Positions 3,681-63,516 of a DNA stretch of 64,000 bases are shown here, piece by piece. The DNA comes from Minisyncoccota bacterium (GTDB lineage Bacteria; Patescibacteriota; Minisyncoccia; Phycocordibacterales; JABMNX01). Location: NCBI GenBank assembly GCA_965222715.1, contig OZ244961.1, positions 12,172-76,171 on the forward strand, given 5' to 3'. Both the position numbers and the translations under genes were made by a program. How positions within the stretch are numbered: the stretch's first letter is position 1; each line of letters opens with the position of its first letter. The notes beneath the pieces are model-generated. The model saw nothing but the letters and a program-made list of their open reading frames with translations, was not told the DNA's origin and did no database searches.

Positions 3681-3713
3681 ATAGCTATAGTATACCCGAG
3701 TGTCGAGAGGACA

Positions 3714-5746: not shown

Positions 5747-5919
5747 TGACCAAAGCATAGCACAGTTGTGCGGTTTTTGCAAGTTTTTCTGTATTCACTA
5801 CCATTTCCCTAAAATACCGCACAAACACATTATACGACGCGAAGATCATCGCATAATGTCAAAATATTGTGCAACATTAAAGTGTCGCACAATATTTTGG
5901 TATACTACTCATTACTAGT

Positions 5920-6822
5920 ATGGCAGGCAATCTAAAAACACTAAAACAAGAGTTTCTTGAGTATCTTGAAATAGAACGTGGGCGCGCGCTTAAGACAGTT
6001 GAAAACTATGATCGGTATCTCACTCGATTTCTTGATTTCTCCAAAGCAAAACAATCGAATGACATCACTGAAGAGAAGGTTCGTAAGTTTCGATTAGAAT
6101 TGAATCGCTCGGGCCTCAATCGAAGAACTCAAAACTATTACCTCATTGCACTCAGACAATTTTTAAAATTTCTCTTGAAACGAGGACATAAAACACTTGC
6201 GCCGGATACTATTGAACTTGCAAAAGAAACCCAGCGTGACATCTCACTTATCTCCCCCACTGAACTCAAACGACTACTCGAAGCACCAGAAGGAAATGAC
6301 GAGAAGTCTCTTCGCGATCGCGCAATACTCAACCTTCTCTTTTCAACTGGCCTTCGTGTTTCTGAACTTTGTGCACTTTCTCGGTATCTTGATTGGAATC
6401 GAGATGAAATAGCGGTCCGTGGGAAAGGTGGTAAGGTGCGTCCAGTATTCATCTCACCTCGTGCAAAAGAAACAATAAAAAAGTATCTCTCTAAACGAAA
6501 AGATACTGACGAAGCATTATTTGTCCATTTTGGTCGTGGAGCAAAACGCGCTGAGAGTGCTGATGGGTCGCGTGCACTTTCACCGAGAAGTGTCGAGCGT
6601 TTAGTGAAACACTATGCAGTGAAAGCGGGTATTGATAAACGTGTTACACCACATACCCTCAGACACTCATTTGCAACTGATTTATTACAAAATGGCGCTG
6701 ACCTGCGTTCTGTTCAGGCACTCCTTGGACATGCACACATTGGCACAACACAAGTCTACACACACGTAACTGATAAACATTTACATGATATTCATAAAAA
6801 GTTTCATGGGAAAGGTCAGTAG
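5920..6822 (+). CDS. tyrosine site-specific recombinase, XerC/XerD family
   Basis: C-terminal catalytic box LRHSFATDLLQNGADLRSVQALLGHAHIGTTQVYTHV (R..HxxR..Y). Confidence 0.85.
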   Translation: MAGNLKTLKQEFLEYLEIERGRALKTVENYDRYLTRFLDFSKAKQSNDITEEKVRKFRLELNRSGLNRRTQNYYLIALRQFLKFLLKRGHKTLAPDTIELAKETQRDISLISPTELKRLLEAPEGNDEKSLRDRAILNLLFSTGLRVSELCALSRYLDWNRDEIAVRGKGGKVRPVFISPRAKETIKKYLSKRKDTDEALFVHFGRGAKRAESADGSRALSPRSVERLVKHYAVKAGIDKRVTPHTLRHSFATDLLQNGADLRSVQALLGHAHIGTTQVYTHVTDKHLHDIHKKFHGKGQ

Positions 6823-8175: not shown

Positions 8176-8446
8176 CTCTGGCTTATCGGCCCGAAGTTTA
8201 TTTATATTTATATAGAGACTTGATAAAAACAAATATGTGTTGTATATTTAATTTTAGAATAGATGTTAGTAAAATCTTAGGAAAAGGGATTTAGAGCCAT
8301 GTTTTTTGCTCCCATGAACCAGAGAGCTATTCAACAAGAGCTCATGAGTCTTCCCAAAAACGAGCGTCGACGAGCTGTTGCTCTCGACATTCTTTTGAAG
8401 ATCGCATTCCTTTTGGTTTTGATCACCATCGGTTCGTTTTCTTGAG

Positions 8447-8653
8447 TTGTCTGTAGAAAGGAGGCCTAAAATGGCAAATCTGGGAGGTTGGTTATTTGTT
8501 CTCTATCATAGCCAACAAACAGGTCAGTGTTTTACACCCTCAGGTTTTCAAACGGGGTGTTCAAACGTACTGGATTGGGTGCTGGTGGCAGTCGTTCTAT
8601 TCGCCACTATTGCCCTACTGAACGAAATGCTAAAAAAACGAAAAGCATCTTGA
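8447..8653 (+). CDS. hypothetical small membrane protein, GC-richer than surroundings
   Basis: ORF with one TM; codon usage differs from neighbours by eye. Confidence 0.3.
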   Translation: MSVERRPKMANLGGWLFVLYHSQQTGQCFTPSGFQTGCSNVLDWVLVAVVLFATIALLNEMLKKRKAS

Positions 8654-8801
8654 CCAACGAAAGAAATCAACCGTTCGCAAGTGTCGCGAACGGTTTTCTT
8701 TTTTATACATCCCTCACCTTTTTATACCTAGAAATGTTCAACATTCGAAAATCGTCCCATCGAGTGAGCTCATGAAAGAGCCTTTATTTAAAGACTCTTT
8801 T

Positions 8802-8830
8802 TGGTTGGTCCTGATAGGACTCGAACCAAT
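8802..8830 (-). other. tRNA 3'-end-like fragment (T-loop GGTTCGAGTCC + acceptor 3' strand + ACCA) without a 5' partner
   Basis: Reverse complement reads ATTGGTTCGAGTCCTATCAGGACCAACCA; no complementary acceptor 5' strand nearby. Confidence 0.35.
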
Positions 8831-8907
8831 ACTTGACATTAGTATTAATATATGATATTATTAAAAGTAGAAATACCCCATTGAAATCCAAATCGGAGGA
8901 ATTTATC

Positions 8908-9144
8908 ATGAACACGAAAAGAATATCTGGATGCTTACTGATTGCCGTCATTGGTTGCGCACTGGCCTACTTTGGCTTCGGACTCATTGATTCGGTGATC
9001 TGGGACAGCACCAATTACCCGTCGTTTTCGAGCAAGTTCACCTCTACCCCATCTCTGTTCGGACTTTCTATGCTTCTGGTGGGAGTCCTCGCCTTCATAT
9101 TCGGATTGCTTGAGGCGGTCGAGGCAATGAGCGAAACGGGGTAA
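8908..9144 (+). CDS. hypothetical small membrane protein (GC-rich)
   Basis: GGAGGA RBS 7 nt before the ATG at 8908; two TM segments. Confidence 0.4.
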   Translation: MNTKRISGCLLIAVIGCALAYFGFGLIDSVIWDSTNYPSFSSKFTSTPSLFGLSMLLVGVLAFIFGLLEAVEAMSETG

Positions 9145-9329
9145 ACACCAAGCGCCTTTGAGGAAGACCTTATAGCTAAGCTGTGCAGCACGCATCTTAT
9201 CTATAAGGTTTTTTTATTTTCATCCCCCCAGCTTTTACATACTCAAAAGTATGCATCACAGATGACCTGACGAGTCTTAAATTATATGGTATGATTAGTT
9301 CAGTTCAGTGGAGTTTTAGGAGAATAAAA

Positions 9330-9605
9330 ATGTTCGACTTCCAACGTTCAATTGTTCTCGGCGCTCTCATTCAAAACACTGATGGCACGGTGACAGTTTG
9401 CCCCCTGTTTCATAACCAGGGAGCAACTATTCCTCAAGAAAACGTTACCCATCAAGTTGTTGAAGAACTTGAAGATTCAAGTGTCATTGTTGTCGATCTG
9501 GGACCTGATGGGCTTTTGACCGACCGTGTTATTATTGGGGTCGGTCATGAAGAGAACATGCGACATATTAATCGCAGCCGCTACTACCAACCTTTCTTTG
9601 GTTGA
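9330..9605 (+). CDS. hypothetical protein
   Basis: AGGAGA RBS before the ATG at 9330; terminator hairpin CCTTAG..CTAAGG+T-run at about 9630-9665. Confidence 0.4.
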   Translation: MFDFQRSIVLGALIQNTDGTVTVCPLFHNQGATIPQENVTHQVVEELEDSSVIVVDLGPDGLLTDRVIIGVGHEENMRHINRSRYYQPFFG

Positions 9606-9701
9606 ATGAACCTTCATTAATATATTCCGCCTTAGCAACGACGACTAAGGTGGTTTTTGTTTTTGTAGCTTTCGTGTATACTTTTTGAATTATGGCAAAA
9701 C

Positions 9702-9812
9702 GAATTACTGGAATTGAGAAAAAACGAGCAACTCGTTCAAAGAAAACAAAAAAGCGCTTAGCTATTAAGCGTGAAATGCTCGCCGCAAAGGCAGCAAAAC
9801 GGGGTAAAAAAT
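9702..9812 (+). CDS. hypothetical 36-aa highly basic peptide (MAKRITGIEKKRATRSKKTKKRLAIKREMLAAKAAKRGKK)
   Basis: Short ORF not in the ORF track (<60 aa); r-protein-like composition but I recognise no family. Confidence 0.25.
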
Positions 9813-10212
9813 AGACCCGACCACCCAGAGTTTTTAAAGGACACTTTATCCACAGAAGTGTCCTTTACATGTCCTTTATGAGTAGTACACTGTACTCAGG
9901 TAGTTCTTTACAGTTCTTTCTGAAGAGCTTCCTTGTGAACTGGCTCAAGTGATACGCGTAACCCAGCAATACGTTTATCTGCAATTATAGAGTCAATTTT
10001 GTGTCATCAGAGATATTACGTCACTGCGTCACGTTACTTCACTAGAAGAGTTCACACACAAGTCGCTTACTGCGATGTCTGGTTTTTGCCCAATCTCCAC
10101 CCAGGTCCGCACTAAGCGGCTTATTTTTATCTCCGTATACTTGACAGATATATATTTTTAATACATAGTTTGTATAGACAGCAGCTCTACCCGTGGTTTT
10201 CGCCACTTATGT

Positions 10213-12302: not shown

Positions 12303-12374
12303 GCCCCTGTGGTGAAATGGATATCACAACGGTCTTCGGAACCGTTATTCTGGGTTCGAATCCTGGCGGGGGCA
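12303..12374 (+). tRNA. tRNA-Arg (anticodon TCG)
   Basis: Manual cloverleaf: acceptor GCCCCTG/CGGGGGC, D-stem GTGA/TCAC, anticodon stem ACGGT/ACCGT with loop CTTCGGA, T-loop TTCGAAT. CCA not encoded. Confidence 0.85.
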
Positions 12375-12377
12375 TGG

Positions 12378-12415
12378 TAAAACAAAAACGGCTCACACGA
12401 GCCGTTTTTGTTTTG
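12378..12415 (+). terminator. Rho-independent terminator AAAACGGCTC-acac-GAGCCGTTTT
   Basis: Perfect 10-bp stem flanked by A- and T-runs. Confidence 0.6.
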
Positions 12416-12684
12416 CTACTTTCTCTAGCGAGGATTCGAACGGAACTTTTGCGCCGAAGGAATAAGCAAAAGTCCGTGGCTCTGGAGGAGTATTGCGAGT
12501 GTATTGTGAACACCTGGAACAATACGAGCAATGCGGAGGAAGAGGAATCCTGGTAGGAGGTACTTAACGAATCAGAGCACGGAGTGCGAATGATGAGTTT
12601 AGTAACCTGACGCCTTGTGCCTAGTAACCATGGTTATAACTCGTGACCGAACCCTGGCATATCAAGGCCACACTACCTCATTTG
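12416..12684 (+). ncRNA. candidate structured ncRNA of unknown class (RNase P-like CR-I/CR-V-like motifs; possible reduced rnpB)
   Basis: 270-nt ORF-free stretch between two tRNAs; AAAGTCCGTGGCTC and GAACCCTGGCATATC resemble RNase P P4-flanking strands; several local hairpins. Confidence 0.3.
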
Positions 12685-12755
12685 TGCGATCACGGGGAAT
12701 CGAACCCCGATCTGCGCCTTGGCAAGGCGCCGTTCTACCACTAAACTATGATCGC
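12685..12755 (-). tRNA. tRNA-Gly (anticodon GCC)
   Basis: Reverse complement GCGATCATAGTTTAGTGGTAGAACGGCGCCTTGCCAAGGCGCAGATCGGGGTTCGATTCCCCGTGATCGCA folds as a canonical cloverleaf. Confidence 0.85.
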
Positions 12756-12758
12756 ATT

Positions 12759-13445
12759 CTACATACCAGATTTTAGTATAAATCCAGGTAAAAGGTCCAG
12801 CCATATTAACATCTTCTCTTTTAAATACCTACTTGAAACCACAAGTGTACACGTACCATACGGTAGACGTCTTGTTTTATGCTTACTAGGCAAAATCATA
12901 GTTTTTGTAAAGTGTTGTAAACCTGTTTCTTTTGACCAAAATATGCGACATTCTTCCTCATTCAAATCTGGGTAGATGAACAAAGCTCCCTTTATTCTAT
13001 TTTCAGGGAAATTACAGATTTCTATAAGAAATTTGAAGAAAATACTAATCATACCAGGATCTGTGTTAGTAATACGCACCAGGTGTTTTGACCGTTTGTC
13101 TCCCTCACCCCAGTACGCAGCAATTGCAAAGATGAAGAGAGGATCTTTTTTAAACTGATTAAACTCAGTCATGGCTTCTTGTCGTGCAATCTCATATTCT
13201 TTTTTCAGCTTCTCACCTCGAATTTTATTCAAGTTTTTTATGCGTATTCTGTGTTCAATGCGAGCAATTTTTAAATTTCGTTCAGTAATCTTCTTTGACC
13301 ACTTCTTCTTCTGTAACCAACCTGACAAGGTGCTTTTTGGCACCCCTAGCTCTTTATGTATCTCATTAAAAGACTTTCCTTTTTTCCTAAGCTCAAACGC
13401 TTTTTGTTTGTCTGATCTCATATTTACTACATTAGCATAAAACAT
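12759..13445 (-). CDS. hypothetical protein with N-terminal IS630/Psq-like HTH; possible decayed mobile-element protein
   Basis: KGKSFNEIHKELGVPKSTLSGWLQK HTH; C-terminal domain unassigned (IAAYWGEGDK only vaguely LAGLIDADG-like); abuts tRNA-Gly. Confidence 0.45.
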   Translation of the reverse strand: MFYANVVNMRSDKQKAFELRKKGKSFNEIHKELGVPKSTLSGWLQKKKWSKKITERNLKIARIEHRIRIKNLNKIRGEKLKKEYEIARQEAMTEFNQFKKDPLFIFAIAAYWGEGDKRSKHLVRITNTDPGMISIFFKFLIEICNFPENRIKGALFIYPDLNEEECRIFWSKETGLQHFTKTMILPSKHKTRRLPYGTCTLVVSSRYLKEKMLIWLDLLPGFILKSGM

Positions 13446-13771
13446 GAGTTCGGATTACTCGTCTAAAGGACATACATCACTGCTCTTTAGTATTGAAAAA
13501 CACTCTACCCGTCAAAGCTTTGTAATAGCTTTATAAAAAGCCATATTATAAAAAATATGTTAATTTCTGGGGATAGTGGTGTGAATAGCATAAATTAAAG
13601 GACATTTTATAACGTGTCTTTTACAAAAATACGGCTTTTTAAAGCCATATTTTTGTGTCTTTAATTCTTTAATGACTTATACACAGAAAATGTTTCACGT
13701 GAAACATTAAGTATGTATTCATTGTATGTTACACGTGGAACACAAACTAGTTTTGGTGTATACTTACTGGC

Positions 13772-14371
13772 ATGAATATTCATAATCTCCTTGATTTCAT
13801 CTCACTCACTATCAAATTTCGTGATGTTGAACGAAAAATATACGCCACAGGGACTACTCGAAACGAAAATGATGCAGAACACAGCTACCAACTCGCTATG
13901 CTTGCTTGGTACATACTTTCACAGGGTAATTATTCTTTAGATCTACACAAGGTCTTACGTTACGCACTCATCCATGATTTTGTGGAAGTATATGCTGGAG
14001 ATGCATGGTTTTACCGCTCAAAAGAAGAATCACGGAAGAAAGAAGCACTTGAGGCAGAATCTGCACAGCGTCTCCAAAAAGAATTCCCTGAATTTACTGA
14101 TTTTCATGAGACAATAGCTGACTACGAAAAACGCCAAGATCCAGAAAGTCGCTTTGTATACGCATTAGATAAACTTATTCCAATTCTCAATGTATATCTT
14201 GACGGTGGTAAGAATTGGAAAAAACACGGTGTTACTTTCGATGCTCTTCTCGAGGCCAAAACATCGAAGATTAAAGTATCTCCTGAAGTAGAGCCATTTT
14301 ATCAAGAACTACTCAGTATTTTAAAGGAACATAAAGATATGTTTCATGTGGAACATACTAAAGAAAAGTAG
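13772..14371 (+). CDS. HD-domain phosphohydrolase (YfbR-like 5'-deoxynucleotidase family)
   Basis: NDAEHSYQLAMLA ... LIHDFVEVYAGD (H..HD..D metal ligands). Confidence 0.75.
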   Translation: MNIHNLLDFISLTIKFRDVERKIYATGTTRNENDAEHSYQLAMLAWYILSQGNYSLDLHKVLRYALIHDFVEVYAGDAWFYRSKEESRKKEALEAESAQRLQKEFPEFTDFHETIADYEKRQDPESRFVYALDKLIPILNVYLDGGKNWKKHGVTFDALLEAKTSKIKVSPEVEPFYQELLSILKEHKDMFHVEHTKEK

Positions 14372-14765
14372 AAAAAAAGAGACCAAAAAGCAGCAAATTG
14401 GTCGTATTGGAGAAGACAGCGCTTGTATGTTTCTCATGAAACAAGGCTTTAGGATACTCGAGCGGAATTATTGGAAGAAATGGGGAGAGATAGATATTAT
14501 TGGAGAAAACAAGGGTGTTTTGCATTTTATAGAAGTGAAAACTGTTTCACGTGAAAACATTAGGTTTGTTACACGAGAAACACTAGATGAGTACCGACCT
14601 GAAGAAAATGTACACCCAAAGAAGCTTGAGCGGCTTCATCGAACTATAGAAACATATTTGCTTGAGAAGAAATACGAAGGGGAGTGGCAGTTAGATGTAG
14701 TGGCAGTATTTCTAGATAGTAAAAATAGGGAAGCGAAATGTCGGATTATCGAGAATGTAGTATAA
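14346..14765 (+). CDS. YraN/UPF0102 family predicted endonuclease
   Basis: GRIGEDSACMFLMKQGFRILERNYWKKWGEIDIIG ... matches the UPF0102 pattern; overlaps the HD gene by 26 nt. Confidence 0.75.
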   Translation: MWNILKKSRKKETKKQQIGRIGEDSACMFLMKQGFRILERNYWKKWGEIDIIGENKGVLHFIEVKTVSRENIRFVTRETLDEYRPEENVHPKKLERLHRTIETYLLEKKYEGEWQLDVVAVFLDSKNREAKCRIIENVV

Positions 14766-18388: not shown

Positions 18389-19171
18389 ATGAACATTACG
18401 CTTCGCATTATACTCGTCTCATCGCTCTGCGGCCTTCTGGGCGCATGGCTGTCCTATGAATACCTCACCGGTTTCTGGTGGGTACTCGCTACCGGAATCA
18501 GCTTCGTCGGTGCCTGGGTGCTCTACAGTCCGAAAGGTTTCTGGAGCGGCTTCTCCCTTGCCTACGCGCATGCGCGGGGGTGGAGACTCGATCGTGAGTG
18601 GTGTCAGAAGAAGCTCAAGATGATCTGGAGACACGCTTATCTTTTTGGGTGTCTCTTCATGTGGTTGGCCATCATCATAAGTGTTCCACTCCTGATAAAT
18701 GAACCCTTCTCGGCATCTGCAGCTATGGGTGTCGTATTGAATGTCTCGATCTTTGCTGCTGTATGCGGAGGTGTGCTCGCCATACTTTTCCTTGGCGAAT
18801 TGAGTGAAGTTGTCGATGATCTGCTCAGATACATCAACATATTCACCCCGCTCATCCTGCTCATGGCACTGGTACCGGCTACTTTCTGGGTGATTCATAA
18901 AACTCCCAGCGGTATCAGAGCAGCTGGAGATGTCTTGTCGTACTTCGGCAAGTTCCTCCACCGCCTAATGCAGCTCACCATCCTTTACGTCAACTCTGAC
19001 GCACGAATGACCTGCGCTATCTGCGCAGCACTCGGCACAACCGCCGGCCACTTCGTCGGTGAAAAACTCATGGGATGCCTCATCGGCGCACTTGTTGGTG
19101 CCCTTGCTGCACTCATCAGTCGCATTGTCGTCAAATGGATTCCTCAGGAAACCACGACGAACAATGCCTAA
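18389..19171 (+). CDS. hypothetical multi-pass membrane protein, higher-GC codon usage
   Basis: TTGACA-17-TATAAA promoter at 18306-18340, GGAGGG RBS; bidirectional terminators at 19188-19270. Confidence 0.5.
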   Translation: MNITLRIILVSSLCGLLGAWLSYEYLTGFWWVLATGISFVGAWVLYSPKGFWSGFSLAYAHARGWRLDREWCQKKLKMIWRHAYLFGCLFMWLAIIISVPLLINEPFSASAAMGVVLNVSIFAAVCGGVLAILFLGELSEVVDDLLRYINIFTPLILLMALVPATFWVIHKTPSGIRAAGDVLSYFGKFLHRLMQLTILYVNSDARMTCAICAALGTTAGHFVGEKLMGCLIGALVGALAALISRIVVKWIPQETTTNNA

Positions 19172-25550: not shown

Positions 25551-25646
25551 ACTATTGCGCAGGTTATGTGTATATCGAAAGTATACCAAACACAGCACTC
25601 CTGGGGGAGTGCTGTGAGTGTTGATAGTTTAGATCTTTTAAAGAGG

Positions 25647-27660: not shown

Positions 27661-29456
27661 TTGGTATACTTAGTGTACTCAAGATGCTCACCTTATATGT
27701 ACATTCACGAAAAACAATTAAAAGAGTTTGTACTTGACTCAGGACTCGTATCAAAAGCGACATTTGAGGCTGCTGAAAAGCGTGCACAAGAAAAAAATAT
27801 ATCAGTGAGTGATGCGTTGGTTCAAAGTGGCGATATTACACAAGATGATTTGCGAAGAACGCAAGCCTACATCCTCGGCATTCCTTTCGTGAGTCTCGAA
27901 GGGAAAAAGATTGATCCTGAAGTACTCTCTCTTGTCCCTGAACCAATTGCGCGAAACCATAATATTATTGCCTACAAGAAGGGTGACGACAGTCTAGAGG
28001 TTGCCATGCTCAACACTGACGACCTTACGGCAATTGATTTTGTAAAGAAAAAAGTACGACTCAAAATTCTCCCTCGGCTCACCGACGATGCGTCAATTAA
28101 ATCAGCGCTTAAGCAGTACCAAAAGAGTCTCAAAGATGAGTTTGGTGAGATTATTCGTCGAGAAACCGCTTCACTTAAAGGTGCTCCAGAAAGTGATGAG
28201 ATATCAAGTGAGGACCTTAAGCGCCTTGCGGAAGATTTGCCGGTGGTGCGTATCGTTGATTCACTTCTTCGTCACGCTATTAATCAAAACGCCTCAGATA
28301 TACATATTGAACCAATGGAGAATCAAGTGTTGGTGCGGTACCGTATCGACGGAATTTTACATGATGCGATGACGCTCCCTAAGAGTGCCGCATCATCAAT
28401 TACTGCGAGAGTAAAAGTACTTTCAAACCTAAAGCTTGATGAAAAACGGCTTCCCCAAGACGGTCGTTTTAAGATGGAATCAGGAAGTGAACGTGTATCA
28501 TTTCGCGTCTCAGTACTGCCAACGTATTTTGGTGAAAAGACAGTAATGCGACTACTTCAATGCGACTACTTCGTGAAAACATCTCAGGCTTTACTTTGGA
28601 AGGCCTTGGTTTTCATGGGGACGGGCTTGAGCGAATACATAAAGCAACACGACAGAAAACAGGAATGATACTCACCACAGGGCCAACTGGTTCTGGTAAG
28701 ACCACAACGCTCTATACTATTTTAGATATTCTTAATACTCCTGACGTAAATATTTCAACAGTTGAAGACCCGATTGAGTATCAAATGCAACGGGTCAATC
28801 AAACACAGGTAAAACCAGATATTGGATTTACTTTTGCAAAAGGTCTTCGTGCGCTCGTGCGGCAAGACCCCGATATTATTATGGTTGGTGAGATTCGTGA
28901 CAATGAAACCGCGGCGCTTGCGGTAAACGCAGCGCTCACTGGCCACTTAGTGCTCTCAACACTCCACACCAACTCTGCGGCAGGAGCAATTCCACGACTT
29001 CTTGATATGGAAGCGGAACCGTTCTTGCTTGTTTCAACCATTGACGTGGTTATTGGACAGCGTTTGGTACGAAAATTGTGTGAAGAAAAAGAAGAGTATC
29101 TTCTGACGCCACCAGAAATAGAAAAGTTACGTAAAATTGTAGATCTCGATAGGGTGCTTACAGTTCTTAAAAGTGAAAATGTTGTATCAGACGATGCAAC
29201 GTGGGAAAACATTCCTTTATATAAAGAAAAACCGTCGCAAGAATGTGAAGACGGGTTCTCGGGTAGAGTTGGTATTCATGAAATACTTACCATATCTGAC
29301 ACAATTAAAGATTTAATCATGAAGGGTGCAACTTCTGAAGACATTGAAGATCAGGCAAAAAAAGAAGGTATGATGTCGATGATTGAAGACGGGATTTTTA
29401 AAGCAGTGCAAGGCGTGACTACTGTTGAAGAAGTACTCCGCGTTGTTTCTGAATAG
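27661..29456 (+). pseudogene. pilB: type IV pilus assembly ATPase PilB/GspE, reading frame broken by a 14-bp tandem duplication (two ORFs 27661-28668 and 28560-29456)
   Basis: N-terminal GspE_N domain in frame 1; Walker A TGPTGSGKTT and the rest of the ATPase in frame 2; perfect direct repeat ATGCGACTACTTC(a/g) at 28546-28573. Confidence 0.75.
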
Positions 29457-29459
29457 CAT

Positions 29460-30674
29460 ATGAAACAGTTTTCGTATACAGCAAAAAATAAAGATGGAGA
29501 AGAGTACAAAGGTACTGCGTCAGTCGCAGATAAGTTTGAGTTGTATAAAAAAATAAAAGAAGAAGGGGGAGTTGTTATTGAAGTTGCGGAAGCTGGTGGT
29601 TCATTCTTTTCAATAGATCGTTTCAATCAAATCTTTGGAGCAGTGAAGGAACATGAGAAAGTGGTCTTTACTCGAAACCTTGGTGCAATGATAGAAGCTG
29701 GACTCTCACTTTCTCGAGCACTTTCAGTTCTTGAGCGTCAAACAAAAAATCCAAAACTCAAACTCGTACTTGCTGAAATTAACGACGAGGTGCGTAAAGG
29801 TGGTAATTTTCACACTGCACTTAAAAAGTTTCCAAAAATATTTTCACCACTCTTTGTCTCGATGGTACACGCTGGAGAGGAGAGTGGTAAATTATCTGAC
29901 GCACTTACATTAGTTGGTAGTCAGCTTGAGCGAAGTTATACGCTCAAAAAGAAGATAAAAGGTGCGCTCATCTACCCAGGGATCATTCTCATAGCAATGG
30001 TGATTATCAGTATCCTGATGTTGGTCTATGTGGTACCAACATTAACGCAAACGTTTGAAGAGCTCGGTGCAGAATTGCCGAAAAGTACGCAGGGTATCAT
30101 TACGGTGAGTAAGTTTTTAACAGAAAACACCCTTATTGCACTCCTTATCCCGTTAGTGATATTTGGTGTCTTCTATCTTATTGGTCGACGAAAAGAAGGA
30201 AAGAAGGCCTTTTACTACATACTGCTACATCTGCCAATCATTGGTCCATTGAATAAAGAAATTCAAGCAGCCCGAACTGCTCGTACACTCTCATCATTAC
30301 TCTCCTCTGGTGTTGAAATTATACAGGCAATCAGCATTACTTCTGAGGTTTTACAAAACCCGTACTACCACGCAGTACTTGAACGAGCACAAGAAGATGT
30401 GCAAAAGGGTTCACCGCTTTCAGGGGCGTTTACTGAAAACGAACACCTCTATCCAATTCTTGTTGGGGAGATGGTCTCTGTTGGAGAGGAGACAGGAAAA
30501 CTTCCTCAAATGCTCTTGCGGGTAGCTGAGTTCTACGAAACAGAGGTTGAGCAAAAGACAAAAGATATGTCTACCGTTATAGAACCATTCCTCATGATTC
30601 TCATCGGTGCCTTTGTTGGATTCTTTGCACTCTCTATGATTGCACCAATCTACTCACTCTCTGACAGTATTTAA
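29460..30674 (+). CDS. pilC: type IV pilus inner-membrane platform protein PilC/GspF
   Basis: Two GspF repeats and 3 TM segments; directly follows pilB. Confidence 0.85.
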   Translation: MKQFSYTAKNKDGEEYKGTASVADKFELYKKIKEEGGVVIEVAEAGGSFFSIDRFNQIFGAVKEHEKVVFTRNLGAMIEAGLSLSRALSVLERQTKNPKLKLVLAEINDEVRKGGNFHTALKKFPKIFSPLFVSMVHAGEESGKLSDALTLVGSQLERSYTLKKKIKGALIYPGIILIAMVIISILMLVYVVPTLTQTFEELGAELPKSTQGIITVSKFLTENTLIALLIPLVIFGVFYLIGRRKEGKKAFYYILLHLPIIGPLNKEIQAARTARTLSSLLSSGVEIIQAISITSEVLQNPYYHAVLERAQEDVQKGSPLSGAFTENEHLYPILVGEMVSVGEETGKLPQMLLRVAEFYETEVEQKTKDMSTVIEPFLMILIGAFVGFFALSMIAPIYSLSDSI

Positions 30675-30681
30675 TAGTGTT

Positions 30682-32031
30682 ATGCGTATATCGCACCTAC
30701 AAAGTAACAAAGGTTCAACACTACTTGATGTTCTTGTTGGTTCCGCACTGCTTCTCATTGTGTTTCTCGGTTTATTTGGGGCGTTTCAACTAAGTTTGGT
30801 GTTAGTTGAAACGGCAAAGTTGCGCACAGGTGCCCTAGCTCTTGCACAAGATAGAATTGAGTATATTCGATCACTTCAATATGACGATGTTGGTACTGTT
30901 GGTGGTATTCCACAAGGTATTCTTGAATCAGAAGAAGCGCTGTCACTAAATGGTATTTCATACACCCGTCGCACCTTTGTGCAGTACACTGATGCACCCG
31001 AAGATGGTTCAGGTGCGCTCGACGAAAATAGTATTACGACTGACTACAAAACAGTAAAAGTGACACTTGAGTGGGAGACGCGAAATGGAACCAGAGAAAC
31101 TTCACTGGTATCAAACATAGTTCCCGATGGTATAGAGTCGGTTGTCGGTGGCGGAACTTTACGCATCACGGTTCTTAACGCTCTGAGTGCAGCGGTGCCG
31201 AGTGCGCAGGTAAATATTGTAAATAACGATACGAGTCCAGCAATTTCTCTCTCAACATTTACAAATACTGAAGGAGTTGTTGAACTTCCTGGTGCACCAG
31301 CGGCAAGTAATTATGAGGTTTCTATTAGTAAAAGTGGGTATAGTGGGGCGCAAACCTATTCGGTAACCGGTCAAAACACAAACCCAAGTCCAGGACATCT
31401 CTCGGTCACTGAGTCAGAAACTACAGCAGATTCATTTTTTATTGATACTCTTGGTTCGATAACAGTACGAACATTTGAATATGGAACAACTACATCGCTT
31501 TTTAATATTCCATTTTCAATACGTGGTGATAAAACAATTGGTACGGATAGTGGTAGTAATCCAATTTATAAATACACTGGCTCTCTCGATACTGGAGGAA
31601 GTGGTACTGACACCGAGAGTTCTCTTGAGTGGGATAATTACACAATTACTATTAACGATACGGTAACAGGCTACGATATCGCAGAAATTTGTCCGGCTAA
31701 CCCACTGTCACTTAACCCAGGAGATAACACTACGGTAGATATTTATCTTGACGAAAACACAACACACACACTTTTAGTAAGTGTGGTTGATGTTAACGGT
31801 GACCCGCTTAATGGGGCATCGGTGCATTTGTATCGTGGTGCGTATGACACCACTAACCAAACGGCGACGTGTGGCCAGACGTTCTTTAATAATAGTCTTT
31901 CAGAGGGGACAGCAGCTGGTAGTAACCCATACTCTCTGTCAGTCTCTCTTTCTGGATACCAAACGTACAATAACAGCTCGGTCGATGTTAGTGATGATTC
32001 AACACTTACCGTAACCTTATCAACTATATAA
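30682..32031 (+). CDS. large prepilin-like minor pilin (class III signal KGSTLLDVLVGSALLL)
   Basis: Start set at the internal ATG 30682; G/S-T-L-L-D-hydrophobic N-terminus; long T/S/G-rich C-domain. Confidence 0.55.
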   Translation: MRISHLQSNKGSTLLDVLVGSALLLIVFLGLFGAFQLSLVLVETAKLRTGALALAQDRIEYIRSLQYDDVGTVGGIPQGILESEEALSLNGISYTRRTFVQYTDAPEDGSGALDENSITTDYKTVKVTLEWETRNGTRETSLVSNIVPDGIESVVGGGTLRITVLNALSAAVPSAQVNIVNNDTSPAISLSTFTNTEGVVELPGAPAASNYEVSISKSGYSGAQTYSVTGQNTNPSPGHLSVTESETTADSFFIDTLGSITVRTFEYGTTTSLFNIPFSIRGDKTIGTDSGSNPIYKYTGSLDTGGSGTDTESSLEWDNYTITINDTVTGYDIAEICPANPLSLNPGDNTTVDIYLDENTTHTLLVSVVDVNGDPLNGASVHLYRGAYDTTNQTATCGQTFFNNSLSEGTAAGSNPYSLSVSLSGYQTYNNSSVDVSDDSTLTVTLSTI

Positions 32032-32034
32032 GCT

Positions 32035-32640
32035 ATGCAGTACAAAAACACTAAGAACGGATTTACGATTATTGAAGTGCTCGTTGTGCTTGCTATTTTT
32101 GTTGTCATTCTGGGTGCGCTGGTTGGATCACTCCGCTACTTCTACCGATCAAACACAACTGCTATTGAACAATCGTTTGCGGTTCAGAGTGCACGTCGAG
32201 GAATTGAAAATATCGCAACTGATATACGTGAGGCAACATATTCAGATGAAGGATCTTACCCAGTTATTTCAATGGCAACATCTTCATTTAGTTTCTACAG
32301 TGATATAGACTCAGATATTTTTATTGAGAAGGTTCGCTACTTTCTTGATGGGACAGATGTAAAGCGTGGGGTGATTGACTCTTCTGGTGACCCACGAACG
32401 TATGATGATAATAATGAAGTAGTATCAATAATTTCTGAAAACGTACGAAATGCTTCAGAGAGTACTGATATTTTTACGTACTACGATACGAACGGATCGG
32501 TAATTACTAGCACAGCAAGCACAACAAACGTTCGTTTTGTTGATATTAATATTATTGTAAATACTACACCCGCGCGTGGATTAAATAACTTCACTCTTAA
32601 TACGAGCGCAACACTGAGGAACGTGCGAAACGAAGATTAA
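32035..32640 (+). CDS. type IV pilin / pseudopilin (N-terminus KNGFTIIEVLVVLAIF)
   Basis: Canonical G|FTxIE prepilin cleavage/methylation motif. Confidence 0.7.
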   Translation: MQYKNTKNGFTIIEVLVVLAIFVVILGALVGSLRYFYRSNTTAIEQSFAVQSARRGIENIATDIREATYSDEGSYPVISMATSSFSFYSDIDSDIFIEKVRYFLDGTDVKRGVIDSSGDPRTYDDNNEVVSIISENVRNASESTDIFTYYDTNGSVITSTASTTNVRFVDINIIVNTTPARGLNNFTLNTSATLRNVRNED

Positions 32641-34052
32641 TGCATATGAAAGAACGAAACCCACAACAAGGATACATCACCATACTCGTACTTGTGTTTG
32701 CAGGAGTATTTTTCGTTGTGGTTTCAGGTCTTTCTGGATTTATTTTTACGCAAAACAAATTACAGATTACGAAAGAGAATCGTGAGCGAGCATTTCAAAT
32801 CGCTGAAGCAGGACTTAATTACTACAAGTGGTTTCTCTCACACTACCCAACTGACTTACAAGATGGCACAGGGCAGCCTGGTCCATATGAACATACCTAC
32901 AATGACCCTGAGGGGGGAGAAATCGGCACTTTTTCTCTTGAAGTAGAAGCAAATCAGCAGTGTAACACTACGATGTCAATTGATATCACTTCGACAGGGT
33001 GGCCCGTAGAAGATACCTCAACCCAGAGAGTACTATTTGGTCGCTACGCTCGACCGTCGGTTGCTGAATACTCTTTTATTATTAACAGTGATGTGTGGGC
33101 TGGTTCCGACAGAACAATTTATGGTAAGTACCACTCAAATGGCGGTATTCGCATGGATGGCGATAATCAGTCCACTGTTGAGAGTGCTCAGTCTACATGG
33201 ACGTGTACCAGCTCGTTTGGTTGCAGTCCTGACTCAACACAAAACGGTGTGTTTGGCGCTGGTACTAACCCAGAGTTATGGAGTTATGGAGTTTCACAAA
33301 TTAGCTTTAACAGTATTATTACTGATTTAGTAAATATGCGCTCACTTGCACAAAGTGATGGGGTAGACTTAGGAAGCTCTGGTGGTTTTGGTCACCATGT
33401 TATTTTTCAGTCAGACGGAACGATTGATGTGTACCGAGTGACGAGTGTTGGGAGTAATGACTGGGAGTATGATTCAGTAACTGGGTGGTCACAGGTAAAC
33501 CGGACCATCCTAGGAGAAACATTTCTACAAACATACACCCCTCCATCTGATTGCGGATTAATTTTTACTGAAGACGATTTGTGGGTTGAAGGAACAGTAA
33601 ACGGAAAGCTTACCATTGTGTCTGCTGACCTTGATGACGTGAATAATGAAACCGATGTCATGCTTACTGGAAACATTAGCTACTCAACACTTGATGGTTC
33701 TGATGGTTTAACAGTTGTTTCTGAGGGAAACGTATTAATACCGCTTCAGGTACCAACCGATATGAGTTTGCGAGGTATCTTCATTGCGCAAAGTGGTCGT
33801 TTTGGAAGAAACTACTATGACCCAAGTCCTGGGTATAACCCAACTCACGCACAGAAAGATTCACTCACCATAAACGGCACCATTGTTTCAAATGGTCGTG
33901 TGTCATCAAAATGGCTCTGTGGTGGTTCATATTGTTCAGGGTTTAATACCCGTAACAGTTCATATGATCGAACACTCGCCAAAGACCCGCCACCACTCAC
34001 GCCATATACAAGTTCTGATTATCGATTTATTGAGTGGAAAGAAGAGTTGTAG
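32640..34052 (+). CDS. PilX-like prepilin-type pilus-associated protein
   Basis: N-terminus QQGYITILVLVFAGVFFVV; large C-terminal domain. Confidence 0.5.
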   Translation: MHMKERNPQQGYITILVLVFAGVFFVVVSGLSGFIFTQNKLQITKENRERAFQIAEAGLNYYKWFLSHYPTDLQDGTGQPGPYEHTYNDPEGGEIGTFSLEVEANQQCNTTMSIDITSTGWPVEDTSTQRVLFGRYARPSVAEYSFIINSDVWAGSDRTIYGKYHSNGGIRMDGDNQSTVESAQSTWTCTSSFGCSPDSTQNGVFGAGTNPELWSYGVSQISFNSIITDLVNMRSLAQSDGVDLGSSGGFGHHVIFQSDGTIDVYRVTSVGSNDWEYDSVTGWSQVNRTILGETFLQTYTPPSDCGLIFTEDDLWVEGTVNGKLTIVSADLDDVNNETDVMLTGNISYSTLDGSDGLTVVSEGNVLIPLQVPTDMSLRGIFIAQSGRFGRNYYDPSPGYNPTHAQKDSLTINGTIVSNGRVSSKWLCGGSYCSGFNTRNSSYDRTLAKDPPPLTPYTSSDYRFIEWKEEL

Positions 34053-34075
34053 CGGTAAATGGTATACTCTAGATA

Positions 34076-34852
34076 ATGAAAAAAGCTAAAAAACTACTTG
34101 TTGCTAACTGGAAGATGAATCCGCAGTCTGTCGTTGAAGCAAAGCGACTCTTTATTGATGTAAAAAAGACAGCGAGTCGTCTCAGTAACGTAGAGACGGT
34201 AATTGCACCTCCTTTTGTCTTTCTTCCAATATTAAGAGAACTGTATGCTGGTCACCGCATTTCATTTTCTGGCCAAGATGTCTTTTTTGAAAAAAGCGGC
34301 TCATACACCGGTGAGATAAGTGCTTCAATGCTCAAAGAAGTGGGAGCGGAGTATTGTATTATTGGTCACTCAGAACGTCGCGCTCGAGGTGAAAGTGACG
34401 AAGATATTCAAAAAAAGGTAGATGTCATAACAACAGCAGGACTGACTGCAATTCTCTGTATTGGGGAATCAGAGAGAGATCATAGTAACGGAACACATCT
34501 TAGTTTTTTAACTGATCAAATTAAGTCAGCACTTGGAGGATTGACTGGGAAGCAAATGAAACAAGTGGTTATTGCGTACGAACCAATCTGGGCAATTGGA
34601 AAAAGTGAGAGTGAGGCAATGCAGCCGAGAGAACTTCATGAAACAGTACTCTTTATACGAAAAACACTCAGTAAATTGTTTGATGTAAAAGTAGCACAGG
34701 GTACAAAGATACTATATGGAGGTTCTGCTGAAAGTGGTAACACCGAATCACTACTTCAAGACGGGGAAGCTGATGGACTCCTTGTGGGGCACGCCAGTCT
34801 TTCAGCAACTGAGTTTAGCGAGATGCTCAGAATTGCTCAGTCTATAAAATAA
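34076..34852 (+). CDS. tpiA: triosephosphate isomerase
   Basis: LLVANWKMN, AYEPIWAIG motifs. Confidence 0.85.
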   Translation: MKKAKKLLVANWKMNPQSVVEAKRLFIDVKKTASRLSNVETVIAPPFVFLPILRELYAGHRISFSGQDVFFEKSGSYTGEISASMLKEVGAEYCIIGHSERRARGESDEDIQKKVDVITTAGLTAILCIGESERDHSNGTHLSFLTDQIKSALGGLTGKQMKQVVIAYEPIWAIGKSESEAMQPRELHETVLFIRKTLSKLFDVKVAQGTKILYGGSAESGNTESLLQDGEADGLLVGHASLSATEFSEMLRIAQSIK

Positions 34853-39515: not shown

Positions 39516-39599
39516 GAGAATGATATGCCCGCGCACCACTACACGGTGTCGCGGGTATTCTTTTTATAGTGGTATACTTTATTAATCATTTATAAAGTT

Positions 39600-42135: not shown

Positions 42136-42256
42136 AATTATTTTTTTGAGTTATTGCAATTAGTAGAGAGTATACCAAAAATAGAATTGTAAATCTTTTG
42201 TATCCTGTTATTCTTTGAAAAGATTAGTTTTTTCGCAATCAAAAGGAGTCAGACAC

Positions 42257-51670: not shown

Positions 51671-52339
51671 ATGAGTTCACAAGATAAAGAATATCGCGTT
51701 GAGGTGAGGGTTCGGAACAACCTCATCCTCAAGAAGATGGAAGAGCGGGGAATTAAGAGTGTTGCTGAGCTATGCCGTGTTATAGGAAAGCCAAGTCAAC
51801 AATCTCACGTTGGGGATATCATTAATCTCAAGCTTTCGCCGGTAAATCAACAGACTGGCAAGTGGCGGGAGGTTGTGGTGCTGATGGCGAACGCACTCGG
51901 CTGTTTCCCAGAAGAACTTTTTTCAGATGAACAGTTAAACTTACAGCTTGAAAAGAATCGTTCGCATTTCGAGCTACATGCCGGCGAGATTCAAAAGGCT
52001 CTTGGTATAACTTCTGCTGAAGAAAGATCTCCTGAGACACAGCTCGAGTTTCTTGATGTACACCGAACAATCTCACTCGCCCTTAACTCCTTAACACCTC
52101 GTGAAGAGCGAGTTATCCGTCTGCGCTTTGGTCTTGGCGGTGTAGCTGAGCACACCTTGGCGGAAATAGCCCTCGAGTTAGGAGTAACTCATGAATATGT
52201 TCGTCACATTGAGCTTAATGCGCTACATAAGCTCAGGCATCCTAGTCGTTTAGTTCAGTTAAGTCAAGTTACCTGTGTCCGATCGGGCCCTAACCGCTTT
52301 GACGTTGAGCTTGACGGCGATCTCTTCAACAAAAGTTAA
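51671..52339 (+). CDS. XRE-like HTH + sigma70 region 3.2/4-like C-terminal domain protein lacking sigma region 2; inserted between rpsJ and rplC
   Basis: C-terminus [53 protein letters not shown] is near-identical in pattern to RpoD region 4.2; N-terminus [24 protein letters not shown] is XRE-like. Confidence 0.6.
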
Positions 52340-52645
52340 AAACAGGTTCCTCAATATGTTAGCCGTGTATACGCCAAAGGGTTATTCCTTTCGCCTATAT
52401 ACGGCTTTTCTTTTTTCTTGCATTATTTTAGGACTCCTGTATACTCTCCCTAACTCATATGAGTTGATCTATGTACAAAGCGCGTGCTTTGGACCAATGG
52501 ACAAAGAAACCGCAAGCCGGCTTTAGTCCATTGCGGATTTTTTATAAGCGACGTAGGGTGAGTGAAACAAAATATCTTAAATATTTTGTTTCCGAGCCGA
52601 GGAGCTTATACAAGACGAAGTGCTTTTATTTCAAATTCAAAAATC

Positions 52646-55335: not shown

Positions 55336-55454
55336 GCCCAGGTATACTTATTGGACACAAGCGACTCTCTGAGTCGCTTGTGTTTTGTGAGGGTATGTGA
55401 TTTAGTGCGCTTAGTTAGAAGTAGCCAGGAACACTAGAAAATGGAGCAAAACGC

Positions 55455-58562: not shown

Positions 58563-58871
58563 ATGAAAATTAAGAAAGGAGACAAAGTAAAAGTAATTGC
58601 AGGTAAAGACAAAGGAAAGGTCGGGAAAGTTTCTCGTGCGCTCCCTAAAGACGATCAAGTTATTGTTGAAGGAGTACATATCGTCAAACGACACCAACGA
58701 GCAACATCAAGCCGTCAACAAGGTCAAATTGTCGATAAAAATCTCCCGATACACGTATCAAACGTTATGGTGCTTGATCCTAAAAAAGACACCCCAACTC
58801 GCATTAGTATTAAAAAGATAAACGGAAAGTATACCCGTATTGCAAAGAAGAGTAATACAGAATTAGAGTAA
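58563..58871 (+). CDS. rplX: 50S ribosomal protein L24
   Basis: KIKKGDKVKVIAGKDKGK KOW motif. Confidence 0.9.
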   Translation: MKIKKGDKVKVIAGKDKGKVGKVSRALPKDDQVIVEGVHIVKRHQRATSSRQQGQIVDKNLPIHVSNVMVLDPKKDTPTRISIKKINGKYTRIAKKSNTELE

Positions 58872-59721: not shown

Positions 59722-60110
59722 GCGATCCTGTAGGAGATTTTATAACACGACTTAAAAATGCGACTGCTGTCGGGAAAGAGGTTGTGGTCACTCCACATTC
59801 AAAACTCCGTTTAGCAATTGCAGAAGTACTCCAAAAGAAGGGGTACATTAAGTCTGCGCAAAAGAAGGGAAAGAAAGTGCAAAAAACTATTGAAGTTGCA
59901 CTTCGCTATGATAAACACAACAAACCAGTAATACATGGAGCTGAGCGTATCTCTAAACCAGGTCGACGAGTATACCTTGGTGCAGACCAGATACACCCAG
60001 TAAAATATGGAAAAGGTTCTCTTGTTATTTCAACACCAAAAGGAATCCTCACTGATGAGGAGGCTCGAAAAGAGCGTGTTGGTGGTGAAGCACTCTTTAA
60101 GATTTGGTAA
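59715..60110 (+). CDS. rpsH: 30S ribosomal protein S8
   Basis: [13 protein letters not shown] matches S8. Confidence 0.9.
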
Positions 60111-63368: not shown

Positions 63369-63516
63369 ATCGTCCAGTTTGGCTAATTGCTTTGTCAGCT
63401 ACGAAAAATAATCACTCGCCGTATGCAAAATACGTCTCGTGACCATTTTTCTTGCTTCCTCGCACTTAACTCAACCTGGGCGATTTAAATAGACACTTTT
63501 TGGTATACTGAAATCT

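Follow-up and report, generated by a model that had tools for sequence, protein, structure and literature searches.

A 14-nt tandem duplication splits pilB of a Minisyncoccota bacterium: a very recent frameshift or an artefact of the record

Bacteria of the Candidate Phyla Radiation (CPR), or Patescibacteria, are enriched in type IV pili, which are widespread among them (PMC6744442). The pili are one of the few machineries conserved in this group, with presumed roles in attachment to hosts, motility, and DNA uptake (PMC6744442, PMC11623550). Here, we describe a broken gene for the pilus-extension ATPase, pilB, in 64 kb of contig OZ244961.1 from a Minisyncoccota bacterium (GCA_965222715.1; positions 12,172 to 76,171). 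We will refer to this whole stretch of DNA as the window. Within pilB, a unit of 14 nt stands twice in tandem, and the gene is read in two frames instead of one.

The closest described proteins are the PilB and PilF motors whose structures have been solved. In PilB from G. metallireducens, N2D, the second of the N-terminal domains, spans residues 181-288, a flexible linker spans residues 289-295, and the C-terminal ATPase domain (CTD) spans residues 296-568 (PMC5424180). In the PilB hexamer, the principal contact measures about 1,600 square angstroms: here, one chain's N2D meets the CTD of the following chain, and the two make up a "packing unit" (PMC5424180). TM7x, a CPR bacterium in culture that has a second pilus system, is viable after a knockout of PilB (delta-pilB2; PMC11623550). 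As for the duplication, there is a well-known parallel in S. pneumoniae: in serotypes 3, 8, and 37, spontaneous and reversible duplications within open reading frames control the phase variation of the capsule (Waite et al. 2001, 2003, as cited in PMC4243769). The lesion that we describe is a fresh instance of a well-known type.

The duplication and the two reading frames

The repeated unit is AATGCGACTACTTC, and from 28520 to 28600 the order is GGTGAAAAGACAGT - AATGCGACTACTTC - AATGCGACTACTTC - GTGAAAACATC. A preliminary description of this DNA had placed a perfect 14-bp tandem duplication at 28546-28573. The repeat is indeed perfect, but that register is one base too far to the right: with copies at 28546-28559 and 28560-28573, the two 14-mers disagree at their last base (A vs G). 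A comparison of each base to the one 14 nt downstream gives a run of exactly 14 identities, which puts the perfect copies at 28545-28558 and 28559-28572. Tandem Repeats Finder reports a period of 14, 2.0 copies, a 100% match, and a score of 56, which is the joint highest score among its 33 rows (the other row with this score is an array that matches at only 63%). This is also the sole perfect tandem duplication with a period above 9 across the 64-kb window. When the window was simulated 20 times with a first-order Markov model, perfect duplications with a period of 12-16 arose in 0 of the runs.

The ends of the duplication are blunt: there is no microhomology at its edges beyond the 14 nt. Significant inverted repeats, or local structures that would promote slippage, were not found around it. 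Direct repeats of GTGAAAA flank the duplication, but their spacing would yield an event of 27 nt, not 14 nt. The region from 28400 to 28750 contains no homopolymer of 6 or more. We also considered the footprint of an excised mobile element, which would leave a 14-nt target-site duplication, and set this idea aside: nothing nearby resembles a transposon.

Read from ATG 27697, frame 1 gives 287 PilB-like residues (...FGEKTVMRLL), continues through the repeat as ...FGEKTVMRLLQCDYFVKT..., and stops at TGA 28666-28668. Its last 36 residues are an out-of-frame tail (QCDYFVKT...HDRKQE) that includes the peptide VMRLLQCDYFVK. Frame 3, which continues to 29456, reads MRLLRENISGFTLEGLGF...TGPTGSGKTT... 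and, from ATG 28560, starts with MRLLRENISGF. This frame holds all four boxes of the ATPase (Walker A, Asp, Walker B, and His). From ATG 28560 to the stop of the N-terminal fragment, the two frames overlap by 109 nt. The translations of frames 1 and 3 thus agree with the initial account of the frame change, in which the N-terminal part is in one frame and the remainder, with the Walker A motif, is in the +2 frame. TGA, where the out-of-frame N-terminal fragment terminates, is a rare stop in this window: among open reading frames of 120 aa or more, 42 end with TAA, 18 with TAG, and 5 with TGA.

If one copy is removed, the result is a single open reading frame of 581 aa from ATG 27697 (or 593 aa from the upstream TTG 27661) that reads ...KTVMRLLRENISGF..., and the intact 581-aa protein would carry the peptide ...VMRLLRENISGF... 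across the junction. So deleting a copy does restore a single PilB, as had been proposed, although the protein has 581 aa, not about 600, and probably starts at ATG 27697, not at 27661. The duplication is the sole lesion in pilB. In the public record, the C-terminal fragment starts at ATG 28665 (263 aa, MILTTGPTGSGKT...), which overlaps the TGA of the N-terminal fragment as ATGA. The public protein collection contains the exact products of 323 aa (P0121) and 263 aa (P0122), both from one NCBI/ENA contig of 617,472 bp; therefore, the duplication is in the deposited record and is not peculiar to our window.

The protein that results from removing one copy, which we will call the repaired PilB, matches Pfam family T2SSE (PF00437) across positions 3-370 of 370 of the profile (E = 6e-125, 417 bits, cut-off 24.9). 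The broken products cover positions 3-115 and 109-370 separately, with the domain split at about position 110. The repaired PilB also contains MshEN (PF05157) at residues 60-145 (49.9 bits, cut-off 23.1), a domain that separates extension ATPases and GspE from PilT. Together with the complete T2SSE domain, this bears out the identification of the gene as a PilB/GspE-type ATPase. The boxes are GPTGSGKTT at 324-332 (Walker A), VEDPIEY at 351-357 (Asp box), DPDIIMVGEIRD at 386-397 (Walker B), and TGHLVLSTLHTN at 410-421 (His box), and almost all of their residues fall in columns without variation among 24 aligned sequences. The 64-kb window contains no second PilB/PilT-like gene.

When the repaired PilB is aligned to chain 5tsg_B from G. 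metallireducens, L287 corresponds to residue 288, the last of N2D, and R288 corresponds to residue 289, the first of the linker. (For this numbering, the 20 extra residues of the 588-aa construct were subtracted and were all taken to be an N-terminal tag.) Thus, the native reading stops at the last residue of N2D. Because the codons for M-R-L-L lie inside the duplicated unit, copy 2 supplies an in-frame ATG (Met284) before the linker and the CTD. The position at a hinge between domains is the only unusual aspect of the lesion, and it is most likely coincidental.

Could the two halves, N1D-N2D and linker-CTD, be made separately and reassemble into a motor with some activity, via the interface between the N2D of subunit n and the CTD of subunit n+1? 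The break between L287 and R288 is exactly at the boundary of N2D and the linker, copy 2 supplies the Met codon, and the contact that one chain's N2D makes with the CTD of its neighbour is large (PMC5424180). Also, a construct of PilT with only the CTD, starting near the equivalent position, has been crystallized (2eyu). The second half would need to be expressed, and no ribosome-binding signal precedes ATG 28560. This is weak evidence, because the genome hardly uses Shine-Dalgarno sites: only about 5 of 47 open reading frames of 120 aa or more that start with ATG have a Shine-Dalgarno-like core at a sensible spacing (e.g., those at 18389, 39123, 46530, and 51671). The genes within operons in this window are 3-10 nt apart or overlap by 1-4 nt, and translation initiation in this genome seems to be largely independent of Shine-Dalgarno sites or coupled. 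So coupled re-initiation would be plausible. However, ribosomes in the frame of the N-terminal fragment run 109 nt past ATG 28560, and re-initiation at the best-placed start (the ATGA at 28665) would produce a CTD that is missing the linker as well as about 23 other residues. The N-terminal fragment would end in 36 residues of nonsense, and the linker is what tethers the packing units in the open state (PMC5424180). Independent transcription of the C-terminal fragment is unsupported as well: no site that resembles a promoter lies within pilB on the + strand, and the octamer GGTATACT, a putative promoter element that we discuss below, is present upstream of the native start only. Finally, a split PilB was seen in 0 of 82 informative loci and in 0 of 120 homologs (among the matches listed). 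Overall, we consider a motor in two pieces to be very unlikely.

Another way to obtain a whole protein would be programmed recoding: if ribosomes shifted by -1/+2 downstream of the repeat, or if transcription slipped there, one continuous PilB would result, its linker lengthened by a short insertion. The 109-nt overlap of the frames gives room for this. There is also a weak, terminator-like hairpin on the + strand at 28586-28606 (7 pairs, of which 3 are G-C, followed by TGGTTTTCAT), 14 nt downstream of the duplication. But this hairpin lies within the native coding sequence of pilB and is probably a chance match; frame 1 contains no X XXY YYZ heptamer from 28545 to 28668; no suitable homopolymer is available, as mentioned above; and the relatives described below need no recoding. 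With neither a slippery heptamer nor a homopolymer, we reject both forms of recoding, which have next to no chance of being correct.

Relatives and the origin of the lesion

Genes follow the same order (PPase and NusA, both on the minus strand; then PilB, PilC, three genes, TIM, and PGK) in two metagenome-assembled genomes (GCA_016186705.1 and GCA_026195275.1) and in two Logan contigs. In all four of these syntenic loci (L001-L004), pilB is uninterrupted. Each has a single copy of the unit at the orthologous site, with synonymous differences inside it, and encodes the same peptide as here, GEKTVMRLLRE. Among about 19 orthologs from 16.4 to 39 kb (22 kb of which is shared with the relatives), pilB alone requires two frames, while the others are full length in one frame. 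Similarly, on a gene map of the whole window, the two parts of pilB are the only long open reading frames on the same strand that overlap out of frame.

Other homologs tell the same story. The 120 listed homologs come from sources named Candidatus Kaiserbacteria, Paceibacteria, or Patescibacteria, and every one of them is a protein of 580-640 aa in a single piece; among them, relatives of 581-582 aa, from metagenome-assembled genomes of Kaiserbacteria/Paceibacteria, are 83-84% identical to the repaired PilB over 100% of its length. In a survey of 84 pilB loci from other genomes, 0 of the 82 informative ones were interrupted, among the matches listed. This survey was guided by a profile, used genome representatives, and returned mostly distant PilBs (at most 70% identity) rather than the nearest relatives, so it gives only a base rate of interruption. 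There were 16 "multi-frame" cases among the pilB matches listed, and each is a full-length pilB together with a neighbouring paralog. We also scanned for the same species with gapped exact patterns across the site: the one-copy and two-copy alleles both had 0 matches in the GTDB species representatives and 0 in JGI metagenome contigs. No conspecific sequence was found among about 15 billion proteins or in two contig collections, and the public protein clusters of the window (including the pilB fragments, PilC, and several neighbours) are all singletons at 90% identity.

If pilB had been broken for a long time, we would expect it to decay. Instead, the repaired PilB keeps 236 of the 238 positions that are invariant in 23 relatives, and the two changes are I to V and T to S. 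Leave-one-out controls gave 0-3 changes. The repaired PilB is no more diverged from distant PilBs than sister lineages are, so there is no acceleration of its rate of evolution; this comparison is biased in favour of our protein because the outgroups are its own best hits, a bias that the test of invariant columns does not have. Given the single lesion, the invariant positions that are retained, and the absence of acceleration, we reject an old or decaying pseudogene.

So the duplication is derived and unique, and pilB has no other damage. Given the single copy in relatives, the lack of broken loci in the survey, the intact neighbours, and the conserved residues, the lesion must be either very recent or an artefact. 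As judged from the conserved residues and the lack of a second lesion, the frameshift would be evolutionarily very recent, or else it is not biological. The preliminary description had offered very recent pseudogenisation and a sequencing artefact as its alternatives, and these are the two readings left standing.

We favour the first of these, a real allele with an ordinary loss-of-function frameshift from a spontaneous short tandem duplication, and we give it a probability of roughly 0.57. The host would be a CPR bacterium that resembles Kaiserbacteria or Paceibacteria. A spontaneous and very recent duplication of 14 nt, most likely from an error of replication or repair, would have put a second AATGCGACTACTTC into the only pilB of the window. 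The +2 frameshift would then end the native protein after Leu287 and uncouple the N-terminal domains from the ATPase domain, in which case this genotype would carry a null or severely crippled motor for pilus extension. The rest of the operon would remain intact, and the lesion might revert by the precise loss of one copy. We infer that the allele is present in cells, that it abolishes the function, and that it is an ordinary mutation rather than a selected switch.

Several considerations weigh against a loss-of-function allele. Neither allele was found by the pattern scans, and the protein clusters are all singletons. An artefact would likewise predict the total lack of any other decay. And type IV pili are presumed to have a central part in the way of life of CPR bacteria, with one system being essential in Saccharibacteria (PMC6744442, PMC11623550), so a null allele in a consensus sequence is somewhat unexpected, unless there is a paralog in the remaining 553 kb.

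The main rival reading, which is possible but less likely, is that the cells have a normal, single-copy pilB and that the additional 14 nt arose during assembly, polishing, or curation, either from a local mis-assembly or because two ends with a 14-nt overlap were joined, in gap closing or manual extension, without collapsing it. An overlap that was not merged would leave blunt ends and zero microhomology, as seen here. The gene is otherwise pristine, with an intact operon around it, and the lesion is absent from L001-L004 and from the 82 informative loci among the matches listed. Also, the record is one contig of 617 kb from an uncultivated organism, so the assembly is derived from a metagenome and was possibly curated. 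On the other hand, the 64 kb contain no other frameshift or tandem-duplication anomaly; the quality of the consensus is therefore high, which argues against a generally error-prone sequence. A 14-nt insertion is atypical of errors in base calling, there is no homopolymer nearby, and assembly from k-mers would require that the junction sequence be present in reads. None of these points against an artefact is decisive.

The preliminary description had also suggested that short tandem duplications of this kind are a classic on/off switch. In that scenario, the gain and precise loss of the 14-nt copy would turn piliation off and on, and the assembly would have captured the OFF state. The pneumococcal capsule genes are a true precedent (Waite et al., cited in PMC4243769), and pili are surface structures, which are typical targets of phase variation. 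Slippage can excise a perfect duplication precisely, and a pristine gene would fit with frequent switching. But there are only two copies and no pre-existing tract, and the relatives L001-L004 have a single copy. There is no microhomology and no nearby hairpin that would raise the rate of slippage. Because the flanking codons differ synonymously between lineages, there is no conserved DNA motif that would be prone to slip. None of the 82 informative loci is interrupted (among the matches listed), and no second allele was found in the protein or contig collections that we searched. For these reasons, the claim of a classic reversible switch is not supported. Reversion is possible in principle, as it is for any tandem duplication, and a selected switch has no supporting feature; we view phase variation as quite unlikely. 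More broadly, it is unlikely that the duplication is both real and functionally meaningful, whether as a reversible switch of piliation in an episymbiotic CPR bacterium or as a PilB that is cut at its hinge and still assembles as two chains. If the two chains did assemble, the locus would be a natural test of whether the motor needs a covalent linker.

If the loss-of-function allele is real, then this genotype lacks an extension motor for this pilus locus. In that case, either another motor would be encoded elsewhere in the genome, or there would be a subpopulation without pili, and both of these bear on the life of an episymbiont. If the duplication is instead an artefact, then the record needs correction: automated annotation yields two fragments of PilB, and an inference of metabolism or traits from the annotation would score the system as defective. 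Either way, the lesson is a modest one: it concerns one frameshift in one genome.

The pilus operon and other features of the window

The rest of the pilus operon had been described as intact, with pilC and three prepilin genes. It is intact, as the proteins are full length when compared to their orthologs (Table 1). The description as three prepilins is too generous: only one of the three genes (32035-32640) passes the Pfam N-methylation motif, and the other two merely have hydrophobic N-termini that are pilin-like. The pilin-like gene that comes first after pilC differs by an entire block from one relative to another. In L001, the gene at 12984-14738 encodes 584 aa; in L004 (13028-14338) and in the window, the protein has about 436-449 aa; and residues 269-411 (approximately) of the L001 protein are absent, in frame, from the protein in the window. 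This protein, with its CarboxypepD_reg domains, may be a variable, adhesin-like protein of the pilus tip.

Table 1. Coordinates of pilB, the duplicated unit, the neighbouring operon genes, and the -10-like octamer within the window
Feature	Coordinates	Strand	Remarks
pilB N-terminal fragment, 323 aa	27697..28668	+	Native residues 1-287 (N1D/MshEN and whole N2D), 36 out-of-frame residues, TGA
pilB C-terminal frame, 298 aa from ATG 28560	28560..29456	+	Native M284-E581: last 4 residues of N2D, linker, whole ATPase CTD
Copy 1 of 14-nt unit AATGCGACTACTTC	28545..28558	+	Within native codons V283-M284-R285-L286-L287 and first base of the next codon
Copy 2 of 14-nt unit AATGCGACTACTTC, derived insertion, frame +2	28559..28572	+	Its ATG 28560 is the in-frame Met284 codon for the downstream frame
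pilC, platform protein, 404 aa, intact	29460..30674	+	Pfam T2SSF, two stretches, E 2e-61; in one frame, residues 1-404 align with the orthologs of L001 and L004
Large pilin-like protein, about 436-449 aa (start uncertain), intact	30682..32031	+	Hydrophobic N-terminus KG/STLLDVLVG...; CarboxypepD_reg domains; aligns 1-435 with the 436-aa L004 ortholog
Type IV pilin-like protein, 201 aa, intact	32035..32640	+	Canonical prepilin N-terminus NG/FTIIEVLV...; N_methyl PF07963, 29.9 bits (cut-off 21.2); full length vs orthologs
470-aa protein, intact	32640..34052	+	Pilin-like hydrophobic N-terminus without Glu5 (QQG/YITILVLV...); no Pfam match
GGTATACT box, -10-like putative promoter element of the pilB operon	27663..27670	+	26 nt upstream of the pilB ATG; putative function
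GGTATACT copies	3689-3696(-), 5899-5906, 25580-25587(-), 27663-27670, 34061-34068, 39571-39578, 42169-42176(-), 55341-55348, 58828-58835(-), 59969-59976(-), 63502-63509		

The octamer upstream of pilB, GGTATACT, occurs 11 times in the window, as compared to 1.06 copies expected, and 0 of 100 shuffled sequences reached 11 copies. Most copies end 7-33 nt upstream of the start of a gene; for example, the distance is 7 nt for the genes with ATGs at 34076 and 63517, and 13 nt for the gene start at 5920. From its sequence and placement, the octamer looks like an extended -10 promoter box, with transcripts that would have very short leaders or none.

We noticed a few other features away from the pilus operon. 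A gene at 51671-52339 (+), between the EF-Tu region and ribosomal-protein genes, encodes a 222-aa protein whose only match is to sigma-70 region 4 (PF04545, E = 9e-16); good Shine-Dalgarno sites are few in the window, and this gene has one of them. Its 3' end is overlapped by 65 nt by an open reading frame of 83 aa (52275-52526) with no credible family match. A 228-aa protein at 12759-13445 (-) has a transposase-type helix-turn-helix at its N-terminus (CENP-B_N, HTH_23, and Sleeping Beauty HTH, all of them weak matches). It adjoins a tRNA-Gly(GCC) at 12684-12755 (-) and is near a tRNA-Arg(TCG) at 12303-12374 (+), and in the region 12303-13445, a mobile element may have left a remnant at a tRNA site. 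Finally, the stretch from 8176 to 10212 is poor in genes. It has three short open reading frames (82, 103, and 104 aa) without a credible Pfam match, gaps of 351 nt (8176-8526) and 607 nt (9606-10212) that are free of open reading frames, and no Rfam match at gathering thresholds.

Comparison with known systems

The pneumococcal genes cap3A, cap8E, and tts resemble our locus in several ways (PMC4243769): a perfect short duplication within the open reading frame causes a frameshift in a gene for a surface structure, and it is revertible in principle. In the pneumococcus, however, both states and the switching between them have been seen experimentally, and there were many independent duplications (Waite et al. 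2001, 2003, cited in PMC4243769), whereas here we have one sequence, with no ON allele found and no recurrence. The contingency loci of Neisseria, Haemophilus, and Campylobacter would match in their outcome, as changes in the copy number of a repeat turn genes for surface structures on and off by frameshifts. But those loci have many units of 1-7 nt, in tracts that are conserved between strains (PMC4235727), while the unit here has 14 nt, occurs twice, and is single in the relatives. There is no tract of many units at our site, nor any tract of variable copy number in L001-L004, as would be expected for contingency by simple sequence repeats.

PilB2 of Nanosynbacter lyticus TM7x is the nearest comparison for the consequences of losing the motor. 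The delta-pilB2 strain loses only thin pili and has reduced binding to its host (PMC11623550). Like our locus, the locus of PilB2 is without a retraction ATPase. TM7x belongs to a different class from the bacterium that we studied, and of the 617 kb of the latter's genome, we viewed 64. Because one pilus system is essential in cultivated Saccharibacteria while the loss of PilB2 is tolerated, whether the loss of PilB can be tolerated here depends on a paralog in the remaining 553 kb.

Among the structures, PilB of G. metallireducens (5TSG and 5TSH), PilB of M. xanthus (3JC8), and PilF of T. thermophilus (6F8L) are co-linear with the repaired PilB from end to end (E = 1e-117 to 1e-121). In contrast to known systems of the PilB/GspE family, no pilT, pilM, pilN, pilO, or pilD adjoins pilB here. 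The tetracysteine zinc motif (CxxC...CxxC), which is common but not universal in the family, is incomplete: the repaired PilB has only C457 and C512. By comparison with the motif of T. thermophilus PilF, these are the first cysteine of the first pair and the second cysteine of the second pair, so that this clade has two of the four. Both are nearly invariant within the clade, and therefore, the incomplete motif is a trait of the lineage and not decay. The repaired PilB and the solved motors have in common N1D (the first of the N-terminal domains, which is MshEN), N2D, the linker, the CTD, and all of the ATPase boxes, as well as pilC and pilin-like genes as neighbours. What sets our gene apart from them is that, in this record, it is split, by a frameshift, at the boundary between N2D and the linker.

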